A stretch of 64,000 nucleotides of DNA, from the NCBI GenBank assembly GCA_013297755.1, contig JAAFIH010000026.1, positions 281-64,280 on the forward strand, read 5' to 3'. Of this stretch, positions 17,965 through 36,413 are shown piece after piece. A program made the translations under genes and the position numbers. The notes under the pieces are model-generated. The model was not told the DNA's origin and did no database searches. It saw nothing but the letters and a program-made list of their open reading frames with translations. Position 1 is the stretch's first letter, and each line of letters opens with the position of its first letter. Source of the stretch: Cytophagales bacterium. GTDB taxonomy: Bacteria > Bacteroidota > Bacteroidia > Cytophagales > UBA9547.

Positions 17965-18011
17965 TTAATTTCAACTAACGATAATACAAATTTTTAAAAA
18001 GTAATTTACAC

Positions 18012-18045
18012 AAAAAAACCGTTCAAATATTTGAACGGTTTTTTT
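18012..18045. terminator. Bidirectional intrinsic terminator between yjbR-like gene and porin
   Basis: aaaaaaa-ccgttcaaa-tat-ttgaacgg-ttttttt. Confidence 0.8.
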
Positions 18046-18050
18046 GTGTA

Positions 18051-18085
18051 ATCAATAATCAATAATCAATAATCAATAATCAATT
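18051..18085 (+). repeat. Heptanucleotide microsatellite (AATCAAT = rotated AATAATC) x5, overlapping the porin stop codon
   Basis: Five perfect units from 18051, with the same unit and strand as 17540-17616. Confidence 0.9.
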
Positions 18086-30400: not shown

Positions 30401-32055
30401 ATGCAGGTTATAATTGGAATGCTGGAGCAGTGGGCATATCAGATTCTTTGGGAAATACAGCCCAAAACAACCGAGATTTGACATTGAACGCACGTGCAGA
30501 TTTGCAAAAAATATACTCAAAAATACCTTTTTTGGCAAAAATGAATCAGGCATCGGCACCGCCACCTCCGCCACCATTGCCCACCGACACCTCTAAAAAG
30601 AAACTGCCACCGCCACCACCCCAACTCAAAGGTTTAAAATTTGTGATGCGATTGCTCATGATGGTAAAATCGGTCAATGCAACCTATCAACAAACAGAGG
30701 GAACTGTATTGCCTGGCTATAAAGGTCGCCCTAGAATTTTGGGTATGGATGATAAAAAAAATAATGGAAGCCTGTATACCGAATTTATACCATTTATTGT
30801 TGGCAGCCAAGACGATAATATATATAAAGAGGTAGATTTTGCTTCAAAATATATGTCAAGAGGCCAATTATTAAGTAATTTTGTAACACAAAACAAATCT
30901 ATAAACATCACTGGGCGAGCCACCATAGAGCCATTCAAAGAGTTTAGAATACAGCTAGATGCTAAAGTAACAAATGCTTTTTCTTACCAAGAATTGTATA
31001 AATACAATGCAGATCAATCATCAAGAGCCAGAAATGAAGGATTAAGAGATAGTGTTATTTTTGAGTCATTGGCACCCACACGTTCAGGTAGTTATAGTAT
31101 TTCTTACTTATCGATTGGAACATTTTTTGTAAGAGACAACCCTGATAATACCAATGAAACTTTTTCGGAATTTGAGCGAAACAGAGATATTTTTCGAGAA
31201 CGATTGTCAGAAGAGAATCCAATAAAATCTTACAGCTATACTATCAACAGCCAAGAAGTATTGATACCCTCTTTTTTGGCGGCTTATGCAGGCAAAGACC
31301 CCAAAAAAAGCTCAGTTTCAGCATTTCCTCGCATCCCACTGCCCAACTGGCGTTTGGATTATGCAGGGTTACCCACTTTATTTCCAGGGATTAAAAAAAT
31401 ATTTCCTACCATCAGTATCACACACGCCTACACATCTACATATAATGTGGCAAATTATGTGAGCAATGGCTTATACTATGGCCCCGAAACGATTAAAAAA
31501 TCTTCACCATTAGAATACCAATATGCCTCAGTTGCAGATTCAAATGGATTTTTTAGGCCCATCAATAATATATCATCAGTGTCGATTGTAGAACGATTTG
31601 CACCACTTTTGGGCGTAAATCTTAAAACAAAAAATAATATGAATTTTAGAGCCGAATACAAAACAGATCGAAATGTAATGTTGAGTATCAGCAACAATCA
31701 AATAACAGACAATAGAAACGAGGAATTTGTGTTTGGTTTTGGTTATACCAAAGGCAATATGAAACTACCATTTTTGTATCGTGGTCGAGAGATTGTAATC
31801 AAAAACGATGTACAATTTAGGGTAGATATATCGAGGCGAGAATCTGGCATAGTGCAAAGAAAAATAGATGGAAAACCCCTCTTAACCCAGGGTTTGATAA
31901 CTTATCAAGTAACCCCCAATATTGGTTATCAGCTAAATCAAAGGCTCAATATTCAAATTTATTGTGAATATAGACTAAATCAACCCAAGCAAACTAATCT
32001 TTTTAAATCTTCATCATTTCAGTTTGGCGTAAGATTTAGATTTAGCTTATCTTAG
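24496..32055 (+). CDS. sprA: T9SS translocon / gliding-motility outer-membrane protein SprA
   Basis: 2519-aa ORF with a TTG start and a signal-like FLRGFCLFLILTFSIKLSSQ. It has the size, ruvA adjacency and long beta-rich composition typical of SprA. All internal antisense ORFs are short shadows. Confidence 0.85.
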   Translation: MSTSKFYFSNWIFLRGFCLFLILTFSIKLSSQSLSDSTQNKKYVPSKRPTYKPKDRYGDAYMDKQGKSPFYDIKLKNSKTDVEIDESGKFYRVNEKMNGTDVRNPSEMTYEQYKAYQKKQTIKNFYSQKSKEKEEKGPETAKSRSLVPRIYMNPSLDRIFGGNYIDVKLNGSVLIDFGYRISSVDNPATPVNLRTIGQFIFDQNIAMNAQGKIGEKLKLTINQDTKSQFDFDNTIKIEYTSTETEIIQKIEAGNVSLPLNNSLITGAQNLFGLKATLKFGRLTAIAVAAQQRGRADEIKVDGGAQVRKFEIRASEYQDNQHYFLAHFFRDKYEEALATMPFVNSGVMITRVEVWVTNRDNTTQGLRNIAALMDLGENKFYNKADIFPAFDNLPVARNNANSLSRLINDNNILSRNADNLNNLLSGQGFENGNDFELVRNAKLLDPSRYRFHPQLGYISLNSPLSRDDVMAVAFEYSYRGVTYRVGEFSGDNGLQTNEQNSALYVKLLRPSTIRTDVPMWDLQMKNIYSIGSTQISKENFQFRITYRDDKTQLNNPVLKFGGTPEIENFKGINVGGIDGKPLIQVMKLDQLNMSNDPQPDGNFDFVESVANQTSLAPVPTPGTQPSLSNTGTPGTAGATTDPTNPNNAAQSNAINNQSTNKMTSVTIDPGFGRVIFPVLEPFGRTLRQGLGNDTLRQPELVGKYVYDEIYRKTKSDVLQIAGKNKYFLVGQLQSSSSDVIQFASFGGNIDPKFVNVFSGSNRLTENQDYILQADLGQVKIINPTYLMSGQQVRVTYDKSDLFQVRQRAFWGTRLDYKVSKDIAFGGTFLNLSERPMITRVSIGDEPVSNSIIGLDGTYKRESGFITKMLDKLPVYNTKEKSTIQAQGEFAKLFTGSPELVNKGGKPNYFIDDFEFSQQPTNLGASPQTNWRVSSAPKDLQGDNYNPLTNKLAVYDNRARLAWYTIDNSFYRGGGNVPDNITSEDKKNHYIRAVSPQALYPGRQATQIPINEQTFDMAYFPHEKGQYNYNADVDNNGLLKNPRRSWGGITRAINNQDTDFDNINYQYLEFWMMDPFEKDANGKVLDGRFNANNNTGGQLQFHLGSVSEDVIKDGRQNFEQGLPVPNVPLNTPTPDADVTDFGRATNQQYLTNSFSTQPGAREAQDIGLDGIDNSQEREKFQTYLNQLPPEARNQAQNDPSNDDFKHYLNETYNEKNAKILERYKLFNGMENNSQNNTGASFNASNYTSADNEDLNLNQTLNETEEYFKYTINIKPGELKVGSNFIINEVNEFYDDNGDGEISDADGGKAVKWYQFRIPLREGFERIGNIKNFKSMRFMRTILTDWQQPVVLRMSQLQLVASSWRQYTDDLSTNDLKEVIEPNDKVFTISEVNIEENLIGSEKNSPYTLPPNFQRDRDLSTTITRELNEHSLRLCVDNLAENDARGAFKVYSTGSTGLNLLNYDRIKMFVHAESPDYRTIKPGDATIFMRLGTDLNENYYEVEIPLDFTDNSKFVGQNGQTLTLEQKFEIWKKDNWFDFKLEELSDKKLLRDTTKSTDRFQRFFAGTLKDSTGLNTTNQKLYIRGNPTYSNIQAIMIGIRNPKGGSDKLPKSLCVWANELRLSGFLNSDGWAATGRVNIKLADLGNVSATTKYATAGFGGLEQKISQRLQETTHDYGATGNIAVDKLLPFNEKVIGLKLPLYVSIDKKTITPKYDPLRPDVKTDKSLDYRPDSVRSEYAKLIEDQTLRRSISLTNIQKVKVKPGAKKHIYDIENLSATLAYNDINRSNVNIQGYNQKNYKAGIGYNYGLKSSNIQPLKNVNGPFKSDYLKLIKEINFSLLPSNITFRGDLDRTITRTQMSNGIETGEHDILGIRPTYEKRFLFNRTYALMWNFTKSISFNYSATANALVDEPRGEINNDTIRAGFTKRDSVMYNLTRGGRTKTFIQNVRINYRLPLDKFPLTSFLSADASYNAGYNWNAGAVGISDSLGNTAQNNRDLTLNARADLQKIYSKIPFLAKMNQASAPPPPPPLPTDTSKKKLPPPPPQLKGLKFVMRLLMMVKSVNATYQQTEGTVLPGYKGRPRILGMDDKKNNGSLYTEFIPFIVGSQDDNIYKEVDFASKYMSRGQLLSNFVTQNKSINITGRATIEPFKEFRIQLDAKVTNAFSYQELYKYNADQSSRARNEGLRDSVIFESLAPTRSGSYSISYLSIGTFFVRDNPDNTNETFSEFERNRDIFRERLSEENPIKSYSYTINSQEVLIPSFLAAYAGKDPKKSSVSAFPRIPLPNWRLDYAGLPTLFPGIKKIFPTISITHAYTSTYNVANYVSNGLYYGPETIKKSSPLEYQYASVADSNGFFRPINNISSVSIVERFAPLLGVNLKTKNNMNFRAEYKTDRNVMLSISNNQITDNRNEEFVFGFGYTKGNMKLPFLYRGREIVIKNDVQFRVDISRRESGIVQRKIDGKPLLTQGLITYQVTPNIGYQLNQRLNIQIYCEYRLNQPKQTNLFKSSSFQFGVRFRFSLS

Positions 32056-32253
32056 TTTTTAGTAATATATTTTTTTTAAATACAATAATATCATGTTTTT
32101 TTTCTAAAATAATATTTACTATATTTTGTGTATAAAATATATTTTTATAAATTTGATTCCTACAATATTTATGAAGTAAATCCTTTTTATAGATTAGTTA
32201 TCTAGTTTTGGAAGTAACAAATAATAATATACCTTAATTTAAATACACTTAAC

Positions 32254-32592
32254 ATGAAAACACTCTCAAAAATCATATTTTTAGTATCATTTATGATGCT
32301 ATTTACTTTCTGTAACTCCAATGCACAAACCACAAAAGCAAAATTCAAAGTGTATGGCAACTGTGACATGTGTAAAAAAACCATAGAAACAGCTTTGGAT
32401 GTAAAAGGTGTGAAAGCCGCCAATTGGAGTACAGAAACCAAAATGATAGAAATTAGCTATCAATCAGATAAAATCTCAGAAGACAAATTGCACGAACTCA
32501 TAGCTGCTTCTGGCTACGACACCGAAAAGCAAAAAGGCGATGACAAAGCCTATAGCAATTTGCCTGGTTGCTGCCAATACTCACGAAAATAA
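32254..32592 (+). CDS. Secreted heavy-metal-associated (HMA) domain protein with C-terminal GCCQY motif, copy 1
   Basis: Signal peptide, FKVYGNCDMCKKTIETAL (CxxC in an HMA-like beta-alpha start), and C-terminal LPGCCQYSRK. It is a paralog of 36069-36413. Confidence 0.75.
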   Translation: MKTLSKIIFLVSFMMLFTFCNSNAQTTKAKFKVYGNCDMCKKTIETALDVKGVKAANWSTETKMIEISYQSDKISEDKLHELIAASGYDTEKQKGDDKAYSNLPGCCQYSRK

Positions 32593-32607
32593 CCATTTAT
32601 TTGTTTA

Positions 32608-32640
32608 AGATTTGACAAATTTCAAAAAGTTGTCAAATCT
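32608..32640 (+). terminator. 11-bp-stem hairpin after HMA copy 1
   Basis: agatttgacaa-(11 nt)-ttgtcaaatct; no clear U-tract. Confidence 0.5.
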
Positions 32641-32677
32641 AAGATTGGAATATTTATGTAGATATGAAATTTTCTTT

Positions 32678-32710
32678 AAAATATTTTGAAAATATTTTGA
32701 AAATATTTTG
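32678..32710 (+). repeat. Three perfect tandem 11-bp repeats (aaaatattttg) upstream of the Abi promoter
   Basis: Units at 32678-32688, 32689-32699 and 32700-32710. Confidence 0.9.
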
Positions 32711-32737
32711 TGGATTTGAAAATATATGTTACTTTTG
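32707..32737 (+). promoter_or_regulatory. Bacteroidota sigma-A type promoter (-33 TTTG, -7 TAnnTTTG)
   Basis: tacttttg at 32730-32737 is an exact TAnnTTTG match. A tttg at 32707-32710 lies 19 nt upstream. Confidence 0.55.
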
Positions 32738-32743
32738 TGGCAT

Positions 32744-32842
32744 GAATACGTATATAACTATGTAAGTATCCAAAAGATACTACATATCAACTTAATATAC
32801 CTTCCAGGCTTTAGCAATAAAGCACACTTGGGGGGTTTTTTC
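32744..32842 (+). ncRNA. Candidate structured leader/ncRNA ending in a terminator, directly upstream of the Abi_2 gene
   Basis: Bulged 10-bp hairpin at 32760-32785. A gcttta-GCAA-taaagc helix (32808-32823) is nested in ccttccag/cttgggggg (32800-32835) and followed by T6 (32836-32841). No ORF is present. The 5' end is inferred from the promoter only. Confidence 0.4.
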
Positions 32843-32871
32843 TTTTATAGCCCACCTTAATATGCTTTGGA

Positions 32872-33822
32872 ATGAAGCCTTATACCAAGAAACCACTTTT
32901 ATATTCAGAGCAAATACAACTACTTAAAAGTAGAGGATTAGTCATTTCTAATGAGCAAGAGGCTGTAAATTATTTGAGCCAAATAAGCTATTATCGCCTT
33001 AGTGCTTATTTTGTTCCATTTCAAAACACAAAAGATGTTTTCAATCCTAATACTTCGTTTGAGCAAGTTTTAGATTTGTATTTGTTTGATAGAGAATTGC
33101 GTCTTTTGGTCTTTGATGCTATCGAATGGATAGAAATTGCTATCAGGACACAATTAATTTATACACTTTCGACCCAATATGCAGATGGTCATTGGCAAGA
33201 TAATCCAGATCTTTTTAGACCATTATTTACAAATCCCAAAACGGGTCGTATTACAGATATTTATGCAGAAATGCAATCTACAATACTCAAAAGTATATCG
33301 GCAAAACATCCTGAAGTTTTTATAAAACACTATAAATCAACGTATTGTGAACCCAAAAATCCACCAAGTTGGATGTGTATAGAGTTGCTAACCCTGGGCG
33401 AACTTTCTAGGCTTTTTGCAGCTATCAAACATAATGCAGACAAACAAAATATTGCTGTATTTTTTGGATTGCATCACAGTATTTTTTCTTCTTGGTTGCA
33501 TACATTGGTTTATGTACGCAATATTTGTGCCCACCATAGTAGGCTTTGGAATAGAGAATTTGCTATAAAACCTGATGTATTGCAAAAACCCAAAAATGCT
33601 TGGTTACAAAAAGCATTTGATAGTAATAATCATCGAACTTTTTATTTTTTGAGTATTTTAAAATACTTACTTCATGCTGCAAATCCAACAAATCATTTTA
33701 AACAAAAATTAGAATCATTATTTTTAAAATATCCTAGTGTGCCTATTCAATTTATGGGAATACCAACAACAGATGGCAAAAAATCACTTATAAATTGGAA
33801 AAATGAGGATTTATGGATATAA
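32872..33822 (+). CDS. Abi_2 family (AbiD/AbiF-like) abortive-infection protein
   Basis: The N-terminus KPxxxYxEQIxLLKSRGLxI...AxxxLxxISYYRLSAYxxPF is the characteristic start of the Abi_2/AbiD-AbiF family. VRNICAHHSRLWNR matches its conserved RNxxAHxxR(L/V)WN (HEPN-like Rx4-6H) core. Confidence 0.85.
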   Translation: MKPYTKKPLLYSEQIQLLKSRGLVISNEQEAVNYLSQISYYRLSAYFVPFQNTKDVFNPNTSFEQVLDLYLFDRELRLLVFDAIEWIEIAIRTQLIYTLSTQYADGHWQDNPDLFRPLFTNPKTGRITDIYAEMQSTILKSISAKHPEVFIKHYKSTYCEPKNPPSWMCIELLTLGELSRLFAAIKHNADKQNIAVFFGLHHSIFSSWLHTLVYVRNICAHHSRLWNREFAIKPDVLQKPKNAWLQKAFDSNNHRTFYFLSILKYLLHAANPTNHFKQKLESLFLKYPSVPIQFMGIPTTDGKKSLINWKNEDLWI

Positions 33823-33847
33823 ATAAGGTTTTTATAAAACATCATAA

Positions 33848-34246
33848 AAGCATGGAAAAAATAGTAATACTATTATTTTTGATTATTTCAAACCACCATC
33901 TGGAAAATTATTATGTGATTTTAACTTAAAAAACGTAGACTCTGTATTGGTTAAACATTTTAAAAAAGTTTCTAAAGAAATTGGTTATGATTTTCTTCCA
34001 CCAGAGCAACTTTTAAACGAGTTAGGTTATGGATTTATGGGAATAAAATTATTAGATAAATCTTATCAATGCCTAAAATTAAACATAGAGTTATATCCCC
34101 AAAGTTATAATGTATATGATACTATGGGAGAATACTATAAAACGATTGGAGAAAAAGAAAAAGCAATCGAAATGTTTGAAAAATCGCTAGCAATAAAAGA
34201 AAATGGGTATATAAGAGATAAAATAAAGGATTTGAAACAGAAATAA
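33848..34246 (+). pseudogene. 3' fragment of a larger gene (TPR-containing C-terminus); N-terminal part missing
   Basis: The frame is open from 33848 (…IIFDYFKPPSGKLLCDFNL…) with no plausible start or signal peptide. The C-terminus has TPR-like YNVYDTMGEYYKTIGEKEKAIEMFEKSLAI. It begins 25 nt after the Abi stop. Confidence 0.5.
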
Positions 34247-34489
34247 TATGTTTTATTAATGTAGATCAGCAAAAAATTAAAAATTTATTGCTCTATTGAT
34301 TTATATTCTTGCAGTTTTTAGTTGTTTTATTAATACCATATTTTAATAAAATATACGTATAGGAGCATTAAAGTGGCTTATACTTTAAGATGAAATTATT
34401 TACCCAAAAATTTTATAACTCTTTTATGAAATTTTATAAAATATGGTACGTTTTATATATGTATATTTGTAGAATAAAAATTTAGTGTT

Positions 34490-34879
34490 TTGAAAAAAAT
34501 AGTTTCCATATCGCTTTTACTTACATACCTTGCTTTTAGCATAGGTATAAACCTAAGTAAGCACTATTGTGGAGGCAAACTCATTTCAGTAAAGCTATCT
34601 AGTCAGCAAGAAAAATCTTGTAGCATGTGTGGAGGCAAACCTATGAAAGGTTGCTGCAAAGACATTAGCTCATGTTTCAAAATCGATAATGATCATCAGC
34701 ATTCTGCAAAAACAGCTATTGATCTTCCTGCTTTTTCAATTAATTTCAATCACATCTTTCCTGAATTTCAACTTTCGAGCCTTTGGAGTAATGTCGTAGT
34801 AATTTGCTATGATTTTAACCCTGATATTCCAAAGTGGAATAATGATAAAATTACTTTTTTCTGTACCTATCTTATTTGA
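34490..34879 (+). CDS. Small Cys-rich membrane-anchored protein (HYC...CC motifs; resembles the HYC_CC_PP family)
   Basis: N-terminal TM helix, KHYCGG, CSMCGG and KGCCKD. Family assignment is from memory of motif names, not from a search. Confidence 0.55.
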   Translation: MKKIVSISLLLTYLAFSIGINLSKHYCGGKLISVKLSSQQEKSCSMCGGKPMKGCCKDISSCFKIDNDHQHSAKTAIDLPAFSINFNHIFPEFQLSSLWSNVVVICYDFNPDIPKWNNDKITFFCTYLI

Positions 34880-36068: not shown

Positions 36069-36413
36069 ATGAAAACTGTAAAAACAATCGCCTTGATGTT
36101 ATTGACATCAATAATTATGTGGGCAAACGCTCCACAGCATGTAGAAACCATCACATTTAAAGTATGGGGAAATTGTGAAATGTGTAAAGCTCGAATTGAA
36201 AATGCACTTAAAATAAAGGGTGTAAAAAAGGGAGAATGGAACGTAGATACCAAAATAGCTTCAGTTACATTTGATATCCACACCATTAAATCAGATGCTA
36301 TTCACAAAGCAATTGCAGCTGTAGGTTACGATACAGAACAGGTAAGAGCCCAAGACAAAATGTATAAAAAACTACCTGGTTGTTGCCAATACGATAGAGC
36401 TCTTAAAAAATAA
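36069..36413 (+). CDS. Secreted HMA domain protein with C-terminal GCCQY motif, copy 2
   Basis: FKVWGNCEMCKARIENAL and LPGCCQYDRALKK; paralog of 32254-32592. Confidence 0.75.
   Translation: MKTVKTIALMLLTSIIMWANAPQHVETITFKVWGNCEMCKARIENALKIKGVKKGEWNVDTKIASVTFDIHTIKSDAIHKAIAAVGYDTEQVRAQDKMYKKLPGCCQYDRALKK

Follow-up and report, generated by a model that had tools for sequence, protein, structure and literature searches.

A predicted AbiF-type toxin-antitoxin module with a diverged abiF RNA motif in a Cytophagales bacterium

The abiF gene and the RNA predicted upstream of it

The locus described here lies in a stretch of 64,000 nucleotides (nt) of a Cytophagales bacterium (assembly GCA_013297755.1, contig JAAFIH010000026.1, positions 281 to 64,280 of the forward strand), called the window in what follows, and consists of an abiF gene and of the spacer that precedes it. 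In this spacer, an initial annotation made from the letters of the DNA had listed three direct repeats, a -7 box with a TTTG 19 nt upstream, two hairpins and a run of six U before the ATG, and all of them are found where it had placed them (Table 1). The gene product matches the Abi_2 family (Pfam PF07751) over profile positions 1-184 of 184, with an E-value of 6e-59 and 199.9 bits for a cut-off of 25.6, and PADLOC calls the same open reading frame (ORF) AbiD (E 2.5e-76). Its residues 3-299 align with residues 10-291 of chain A of the PDB entry 8VZ6, the Prevotellaceae protein PbAbiF (E 4.7e-51), and its Rx4H motif, which reads R216-N-I-C-A-H221, places R216 (33517-33519) and H221 (33532-33534) on the catalytic R210 and H215 of PbAbiF. 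Among 24 homologues, R216, N217, A220, H221, H222 and R224 are invariant. The residues R210/H215 of PbAbiF and R202/H207 of the Clostridioides difficile protein AbiFCd are essential, and the mutation of R210/H215 inactivates PbAbiF (PMC12373285). An identical protein with the same neighbours was found in two Logan assemblies. Judged by its sequence, the window protein is an ordinary, intact and full-length AbiF.

AbiF proteins are described as HEPN RNase toxins neutralised by a non-coding RNA (ncRNA) encoded directly upstream, and the systems they form as type III toxin-antitoxin (TA) systems (Zilberzwige-Tal et al., Cell 2025, as cited in PMC12373285, PMC12737573 and PMC13064643); the literature of this kind to which the initial annotation had alluded does exist. 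According to the same papers, the cryo-electron microscopy structure 8VZ6 contains an AbiF dimer and two copies of the ncRNA, whose bulge nucleotides block the HEPN site (via PMC12737573, PMC13064643 and PMC12373285). The RNA predicted upstream of the window gene is clearly homologous, on the alignments and scores presented below, to the abiF motif of Rfam (RF03085), of which it is a diverged form, and we consider it likely that RNA and gene together constitute a self-contained AbiF-type type III TA, or abortive-infection, module. The system is already known and the protein is a plain member of its family; what is new is the form of the RNA.

The comparisons rest on homologues gathered by a genome scan, in which 80 loci were taken of the 361 relatives detected, nearly all from Bacteroidota and with proteins 51-67% identical to the window AbiF, and by a metagenome scan with the single window protein, which added 13 loci. 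The element upstream of the gene was aligned in the 82 Bacteroidota-type homologue loci that had enough upstream sequence.

The start of transcription is predicted near 32744, downstream of a match to the pattern TTTG/TAnnTTTG, which we take to be the Bacteroides promoter consensus, so that the RNA would be about 100 nt long. An exact TAnnTTTG box, looked for within 145 nt 5' of the outer helix P1 or the core, is present in 67 of the 82 loci as against 20 of 410 control windows (4.9%), an enrichment of about 17-fold, and the full TTTG-N17-22-TAnnTTTG occurs in 15 of the loci and in none of the controls. In the locus L005, the -7 box sits directly 5' of the conserved flank of the motif. The stretch from the U-run to the ATG of the window holds no exact TAnnTTTG box, so that abiF must be transcribed through the motif. 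A sigma-70 scan of the region was uninformative, this promoter type being the wrong one for Bacteroidota.

The 11-bp repeats (period 11, 3.0 copies and 100% match over 32678-32710 according to Tandem Repeats Finder) are, as the predicted promoter places them, promoter-upstream DNA that overlaps the -33 element and lies outside the RNA, the third copy providing the -33 TTTG; they may serve as an UP-like or DNA-curvature element. In L001, from a Chitinophagaceae metagenome-assembled genome (MAG) whose protein is 67% identical, AAAAATATTTC is repeated 2.9 times with a period of 11 at the same offset (positions 70-101 of the 272-nt upstream extract); besides L001, no scanned locus has a period-11 repeat at this offset. 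Several other close relatives carry at the position of the repeats an inverted repeat of the type AAATTTGTTTT...AACAAAA.

RNAfold gives only two hairpins for 32740-32845, one at 32759-32786 and a nested one at 32799-32836, with -24.6 kcal/mol and z = -3.3 (2 of 200 shuffles as stable). At the level of the sequence, the architecture of a type III system is present: a promoter, then a hairpin with U6CU4, then 26 nt, then the ATG. A simple terminator scan makes no call at 32800-32846, because its pattern allows loops of 3-8 nt and thereby excludes the nested hairpin.

The spacer had been said to contain no ORF. Strictly, a mechanical ORF of 44 codons spans 32726-32860; it was rejected as a gene, since it starts within the promoter, matches no Pfam family and corresponds to leaders that vary freely in length and sequence among relatives. 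In the read-through RNA 32744-32900, the segment 32806-32813 (AGGCUUUA) can pair with the start-codon region 32873-32880 (UGAAGCCU) in a fold of -37.8 kcal/mol; this alternative is probably due to chance, as L001 and L003 have no complementary AAGCCU after the ATG.

Table 1. Coordinates of the features at the abiF locus, in positions of the window.
Feature	Position	Strand	Description
Direct repeats	32678..32710	.	AAAATATTTTG x3, perfect, 11 bp; phased A/T tracts
Predicted Bacteroidota-type promoter	32707..32737	+	TTTG 32707-32710, 19-nt spacer, -7 box TACTTTTG 32730-32737; pattern match
Predicted antitoxin ncRNA	32744..32846	+	About 100 nt: leader, hairpin, 5' flank, abiF-like motif, U-run; ends deduced from promoter and U-run
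Leader hairpin	32759..32786	+	11 bp counting U32759-A32786, one bulged A, CAAAA loop, -8.9 kcal/mol
Conserved single-stranded 5' flank	32790..32799	+	Window ACUUAAUAUA, family consensus AAGAUAAUACA; AAUA[C/U]A near-invariant
Remodelled abiF motif (putative antitoxin core and terminator stem)	32800..32836	+	Covariation; lines up column by column with RF03085 in L094 and L095
P1 outer helix	32800-32805 / 32830-32835	+	CCUUCC/GGGGGG
Unpaired A32806, G32807	between P1 and P2	+	
P2 and extension	32808-32813 / 32818-32823	+	GCUUUA/UAAAGC; GCAA loop 32814-32817
Invariant 3' bulge	32824-32829	+	ACACUU, between P2 and P1
U-run	32836..32846	+	U6CU4, directly after P1; 26 nt 5' of ATG; intrinsic-terminator-like with the motif
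abiF	32872..33822	+	316-aa Abi_2/AbiD-F HEPN protein, predicted RNase toxin; ATG at 32872

Conservation of the element and its two classes

All 82 loci carry upstream of the Abi_2 gene the near-invariant core AAUACACC-YCCCA-KGC-(loop or hairpin)-GCACACUU-GGGGGG-U-run, so that the conservation by which the initial annotation had wished its proposal to be judged is seen throughout this set, and the covariation it had asked for is likewise observed, in P1 and P2 as in the helix extension described below. The family element reads AAGAUAAUACA-CCYCCC-A-KGC-(variable)-GC-ACACUU-GGGGGG-UUUUYUCUUUU; its U-run is kept across the family, and its GCACAC core lies 32-57 nt 5' of the ATG, with one outlier at 131. 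In P1 and the base of P2, 95.7% of the cells are paired and five pairs show compensatory changes (CCUCCU/AGGAGG, CCUUCC/GGAAGG and ACUCCC/GGGAGU are examples), values reached by none of 500 shuffles, and structures slid by 1-3 columns leave just 33-59% of the cells paired. P1 alone is paired in 98.2% of the cells, with compensatory changes in four of its six pairs. The nested helices are independently yielded by RNAalifold.

The element occurs in two classes. Class B, to which 57 of the 82 loci belong, keeps the canonical 11-nt apical loop (GCCUCUCnnnGAUGC); in class A, which comprises the window, its closest relatives L001-L006, L011, L064, L081 and L082, and two other protein clades, this loop is replaced by GGCUU-(stem-loop)-AGC. 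The helix extension of class A is paired in 98.6% of the cells and has 26 double-change cells for 8.6 expected (none of 500 shuffles), its caps being GCAA, UUCG or other loops. In the window it consists of UUA/UAA and a GCAA loop, and the bulged U present in most class A elements is missing. Of the three pairs at the base of P2, G-C and C-G are invariant; the third reads A-U in PbAbiF and in the phage phiC2 and U-A in class B, and the window, like most class A elements, has G.A there. The 3' bulge ACACUU is invariant in the family and is aligned with the UCAAAU(G) of PbAbiF and phiC2, than which it is one nucleotide shorter.

The relation with RF03085 was established with two reference loci, L094, which is the authentic PbAbiF (its protein P0121 is 100% identical to the sequence of 8VZ6), and L095, from phage phiC2. 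Their motifs score 58.5 bits (L094:1063-1099) and 37.6 bits, for a gathering score of 37 bits, and MAFFT aligns them column by column with the family element, that of the window included. Among sister loci, L007, L017, L020 and L078 score 35.8, 35.0, 27.1 and 26.2 bits, and the gathering score is reached in 7 of 20 further class B loci, with 37.4-44.6 bits. From the column-by-column alignment and these scores it follows that the conserved element is the abiF motif. At the permissive E<=10, the model gives no match in the three class A loci scanned (the window, L001 and L065); in the window, where the scan covered 31500-34500, only chance matches to eukaryotic families were returned. The suggestion that the RNA of this lineage may be undescribed must therefore be narrowed: it is a diverged form of a described motif, which some sister loci display at or above threshold, and it is the variant of the window that Rfam misses. 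This variant shares with RF03085 the position directly 5' of the Abi_2 gene on the same strand, the covarying 6-bp P1 and an asymmetric internal loop, about 6 nt in size and on the 3' side; of the 3-bp P2 of the model (AGC/GCU) it keeps the G-C and C-G pairs, with G.A as the third, and it lacks the 11-nt apical loop (CUCUCAACGAU) and stays below the score threshold.

With R1, a covariance model built from the class A elements, the 64-kb window contains a single copy of the motif (32775-32848, 72.8 bits, E 3e-12), the second-lowest score among 24 class A elements. No extra copy or array was found in the window, the only other R1 match (17994-18051, E 0.4) being attributable to chance. R1 also matches every class B element.

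The helix which the initial annotation had taken for a terminator following a separate RNA is thus the conserved antitoxin motif itself, although the signal it had noticed, a hairpin with a U-run, is indeed present. As to the first hairpin, which it had counted as an element of the RNA, the stem is what endures: in most class A leaders a stable hairpin occupies the corresponding position (median z = -1.8, z < -1.64 in 11 of 20), though with an unrelated sequence, and the sequence of the window hairpin 32759-32786 has no relatives, which makes it the variable part of the transcript. The single-stranded 5' flank, absent from the PbAbiF and phiC2 loci, is a candidate contact with AbiF or a candidate processing site.

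Several further observations touch the family as a whole. In its consensus, the 5' flank AAUACACC and the 3' bulge GCACACUU both hold ACAC, just 5' of each P1 strand; in the window (32794-32801 and 32822-32829) the flank reads AAUAUACC, which leaves a similarity of the ACA type only. The ACAC segments are candidate pseudo-substrates of the RNase. The class B motif of L078 (L078:2930-2974) has its conserved loop extended at the tip by an inserted CGG-UUCG-CCG hairpin (GCCUCUCUCGGUUCGCCGGGAUGC) and, on its sequence, may stand midway from the loop form to the helix-extended one.

A second structured element, module 1, stands between the promoter and the abiF-type motif in L010 (2878-2931), in L027 (2883-2936) and in some 25 further loci of class B (alignment A4). 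It reads AACAGU-ACCCG-uuuu-GCa-uaCCGUAAGAUC-uGC-nnn-CGGGU-C and is followed by a U-run; its topology is that of the abiF motif (5-bp outer helix, 3-bp inner helix, conserved loop of 12 nt) with a different sequence, and it covaries, with 85.5% of the cells paired (73.1% in shuffles) and 27 double-change cells (9.7 in shuffles). In the four such loci scanned at E<=10, it goes unreported by the Rfam abiF model. Module 1 recalls the two motifs of RCd22, the antitoxin RNA of AbiFCd; in its place the window has a plain hairpin.

Directly 5' of the start codons of Abi_2 genes 32-35% identical to that of the window (L091:1402-1481, L092:1402-1481, L093:1411-1490), weak R1 matches of 31.0 and 20.1 bits suggest further diverged RNAs of the abiF type. 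On the protein side, no column cleanly discriminates class A from class B among the homologues compared, and a rough neighbour-joining tree splits class A over three protein clades: either the RNA type has switched several times or the tree is unreliable.

Genomic setting, proposed mechanism and other readings

The region has about 30% G+C, with no G+C anomaly at the locus; RpsB, RuvA and a 2519-aa SprA are encoded upstream and TonB-dependent receptors beyond. PADLOC gives no other defence match in the window, and no integrase, transposase or other mobile-element Pfam family is found among the neighbouring proteins scanned. The abiF gene lies between two genes for HMA-domain paralogues (32254-32592 and 36069-36413), which are 44% identical, apparently have signal-peptide-like N-termini, and bracket a 3.5-kb segment encoding AbiF and a 99-aa TPR, a DUF8199 and a beta-propeller protein. 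The upstream HMA gene is followed, 17 nt past its stop codon, by a perfect inverted repeat of 11 bp (AGATTTGACAA / TTGTCAAATCT, 32609-32641), which folds with its flanks at -13.6 kcal/mol and lacks a U-run; it is probably the terminator or a stabilising hairpin of that gene, unrelated to the Abi module.

Abi_2 genes commonly sit within type I restriction-modification (R-M) operons. Among the 87 related loci in which neighbouring genes were counted, HsdM (N6_Mtase and HsdM_N) is upstream in 53 and HsdR (HSDR_N, SWI2_SNF2 and EcoR124_C) downstream in 45, L001:1-2781 and L007:3940-6807 being examples of such flanks; by these domain matches, the usual place of the module among these relatives is inside a type I R-M operon. 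The window has neither gene. The module carries a predicted promoter and a terminator of its own, as would suit a cassette able to work in either setting. In L015, a Flavobacterium MAG, a Flavo-1 RNA (RF01705, 47.4 bits, above the gathering score) lies on the minus strand at 1464-1542, about 1.4 kb 5' of the Abi module, to which it is probably unrelated.

The model we propose borrows its mechanistic steps from PbAbiF and from the C. difficile pair AbiFCd-RCd22. RCd22 is an RNA of about 100 nt with mapped 5' and 3' ends, which contains two abiF motifs (RF03085) and a terminator; most transcripts stop at this terminator, and read-through produces the abiF mRNA. Its deletion raises abiF expression 17-fold, and it neutralises the toxin in cis and in trans, its stem structure being required (PMC12373285). 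By analogy, the Bacteroidota promoter of the window (TTTG-N19-TACTTTTG, 32707-32737) would drive the synthesis of a transcript of about 100 nt, the 3' part of which (32800-32836) would fold into the diverged abiF motif with its 6-bp outer helix, its inner helix and the 3' bulge ACACUU. Because the U-run directly follows it, this motif would double as an intrinsic terminator, at which the bulk of the transcripts would end, building up as free antitoxin RNA, and only the smaller share would continue into abiF (32872-33822). The AbiF protein would be a HEPN RNase active as a dimer, to which the RNA would bind with the bulge nucleotides in or over the Rx4H site (R216/H221), thereby keeping the toxin silent; phage infection or the loss of the RNA supply would free the RNase and provoke the arrest of the cell. 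The model starts from what is observed at the locus, namely its sequence features, the homology of protein and RNA, the covariation, the enrichment of the promoter and the single copy of the motif, and it is from the two characterised systems that we infer the RNA-protein binding, the inhibition by the bulge, the dosing by read-through, the toxicity and the anti-phage action. The module put forward by the initial annotation, an RNA antitoxin and a HEPN Abi_2 protein with their own promoter and terminator read-through, finds support in this homology.

Some observations weigh against the model. The Rfam model misses the window element and the canonical apical loop is gone, so that the mode of binding could differ. 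RNAalifold prefers a register in which part of the bulge is paired (A34-U60, G35-U59 and G36-C58 in alignment A2), and the register of the junction stays ambiguous with respect to covariation because the columns concerned are invariant; the bulged form is favoured by the homology with the Rfam model and by the single-stranded bulge reported for 8VZ6 in the papers that cite the structure, and the two registers could correspond to a terminator form and a protein-bound form. Finally, most of its relatives have type I R-M surroundings that the window copy lacks, and this copy could be a silent orphan, though its ORF and RNA are intact.

Another reading is a purely cis-acting attenuator, in which hairpin and U-run would throttle abiF, the released RNA would have no antitoxin role in trans and AbiF would be controlled by its dose or by another partner. 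The motif does double as a terminator-like hairpin, the extended register of RNAalifold is a continuous stem abutting the U-run, and RCd22 also has a strong effect in cis (PMC12373285). A terminator, however, needs just a stem and a U-run, yet across hosts with proteins 51-67% identical it is the unpaired GCACACUU and AAUACA flank that are the most conserved parts of the element, a pattern suggestive of a partner that recognises the sequence; moreover, protein binding and neutralisation in trans are reported for the homologous motifs of PbAbiF, in the citing papers, and of RCd22. We regard this attenuator as unlikely. That the locus is a decaying or silent orphan, transferred from a type I R-M operon to a place among housekeeping genes (its neighbours encode SprA, RuvA, HMA-domain proteins and TonB-dependent receptors) and devoid of a defence function, is suggested by the absence from the window of the HsdM and HsdR genes found in 53 and 45 of the 87 related loci, by the lack of any other PADLOC match in it and by the second-lowest R1 score of its element among the 24 of class A. 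Lesions would be expected in a toxin gene left without antitoxin or function, but the ORF has its full length and all the family-invariant residues, those of the HEPN motif included, no damage is seen in the promoter, the two helices or the bulge, and the identical protein with its neighbours recurs in two further assemblies; we judge a silent orphan quite improbable.

It is very hard to believe that the three 11-bp repeats are a ToxI-like array and the real antitoxin, even though the antitoxins of classical type III systems consist of tandem repeats 5' of the toxin gene and the repeats here are perfect. They lie 5' of the -7 box and their third copy forms the -33 TTTG, so that they would not be transcribed from the predicted promoter; their units measure 11 nt instead of about 34-37 nt in known arrays; and a similar repeat occurs in L001 only, whereas the abiF-like motif is universal. 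The window has one copy of the motif and no transcribed tandem repeat of the classical type III kind, and AbiF systems are reported to depart from this rule (PMC12373285). As for hairpins and repeats arising by chance in AT-rich intergenic DNA, with the second hairpin a plain terminator unconnected to Abi, the low G+C content of the region, in which hairpins and A/T repeats arise easily, and the silence of the simple terminator scan would speak for it; the comparative data have in practice already refuted this reading, since the element is tied to the Abi_2 gene in 82 of 82 loci whatever the upstream gene, its helices covary, it is homologous to RF03085 and its fold has z = -3.3.

A more speculative extension of the proposed module, to which we give a small but real chance, is that this clade uses a composite antitoxin mechanistically unlike the PbAbiF RNA (PbAbiFr). 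The apical loop, given its replacement by a freely covarying helix, would be dispensable, and the invariant ACACUU bulge and AAUACA flank, both of which contain ACA, would act as two pseudo-substrates within the composite HEPN site that the AbiF dimer forms. The second subunit would find its partner in the upstream element, which is a plain hairpin in the window and module 1 in sister loci, one RNA bridging the dimer as has been modelled for RCd22, and the hypervariable helix tip would be a tolerated insertion site. If so, this tip would be the kind of position at which a variable, guide-like segment could arise on the proposed path from AbiF to Cas13.

What the AbiF-type module of the window adds lies mainly in annotation and comparison, and the current picture of AbiF or Cas13 evolution is unchanged. 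At least 82 Bacteroidota-type AbiF loci carry an abiF-type RNA that Rfam catches only in part and that an extension of the seed would recover. Class A is, moreover, a natural experiment on the PbAbiF-RNA complex, in which the most conserved loop has become a helix and the 3' bulge has remained invariant, which suggests that the contacts AbiF cannot do without are those of the bulge and P1 and not those of the loop. In these Bacteroidota the antitoxin hairpin would itself be the terminator stem, which would couple the folding of the RNA, the dosing of the toxin and possibly the binding of the protein.

Relation to known systems

Among characterised systems, the PbAbiF-AbiFr pair of 8VZ6 offers many points of likeness: it comes from the same phylum, its protein is homologous over the full length (about 40% identity by eye) with the catalytic R and H aligned, and its locus has a -7 box followed by one motif, with a U-run immediately behind P1 and an ATG some 20-30 nt further on. 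The topology of the RNA is shared as well, with a 6-bp P1, a GC/GC base of P2 and a 3' bulge of 6-7 nt. PbAbiFr, however, keeps the 11-nt loop CUCUCAACGAU and the bulge UCAAAUG, where the window has the helix extension with GCAA and the bulge ACACUU; unlike in the window, the -7 box of L094 is about 11 nt 5' of the motif, which leaves no room for a 5' hairpin or for the AAGAUAAUACA flank; and the 58.5 bits of L094 with RF03085 contrast with the absence of a match in the window. Like the Rfam family itself, with whose model class B loci score 26-45 bits, the window RNA lies 5' of the Abi_2 gene and on its strand and has P1, the base of P2 and the asymmetric 3' internal loop; it differs by the replaced apical loop, by the change of the third P2 pair (A-U/U-A) to G.A and by a bulge one nucleotide shorter and of another sequence.

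The AbiFCd-RCd22 system of the C. difficile phage phi027 likewise has an ncRNA of about 100 nt with its own promoter, a terminator before abiF, read-through, a HEPN toxin with Rx4H and two structured RNA modules (PMC12373285), features that are predicted from the sequence in the window. RCd22 consists of two abiF motifs and a separate terminator hairpin, whereas the window would have one remodelled motif, itself the terminator stem, after a plain hairpin; AbiFCd is only about 31% identical to the window AbiF, and its system is prophage-borne and from Bacillota, that of the window chromosomal and from Bacteroidota.

Classical type III toxins such as ToxN have a fold unrelated to HEPN, and ToxIN, CptIN and TenpIN have tandem arrays of 34-37-nt repeats where the window has one copy of its motif. 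What the window system would share with them, by analogy, is an upstream antitoxin RNA, a terminator that sets the RNA:toxin ratio and an endoribonuclease toxin inhibited by RNA binding (PMC12373285). Cas13 (type VI) differs in that AbiF has a single HEPN domain and forms a dimer, and the window has one R1 motif and neither a repeat-spacer array nor a guide segment; the two have in common the HEPN RNase chemistry, AbiF has been proposed as the ancestor of Cas13, and the hairpin RNA bound by AbiF resembles the repeat of a CRISPR RNA (PMC12737573).

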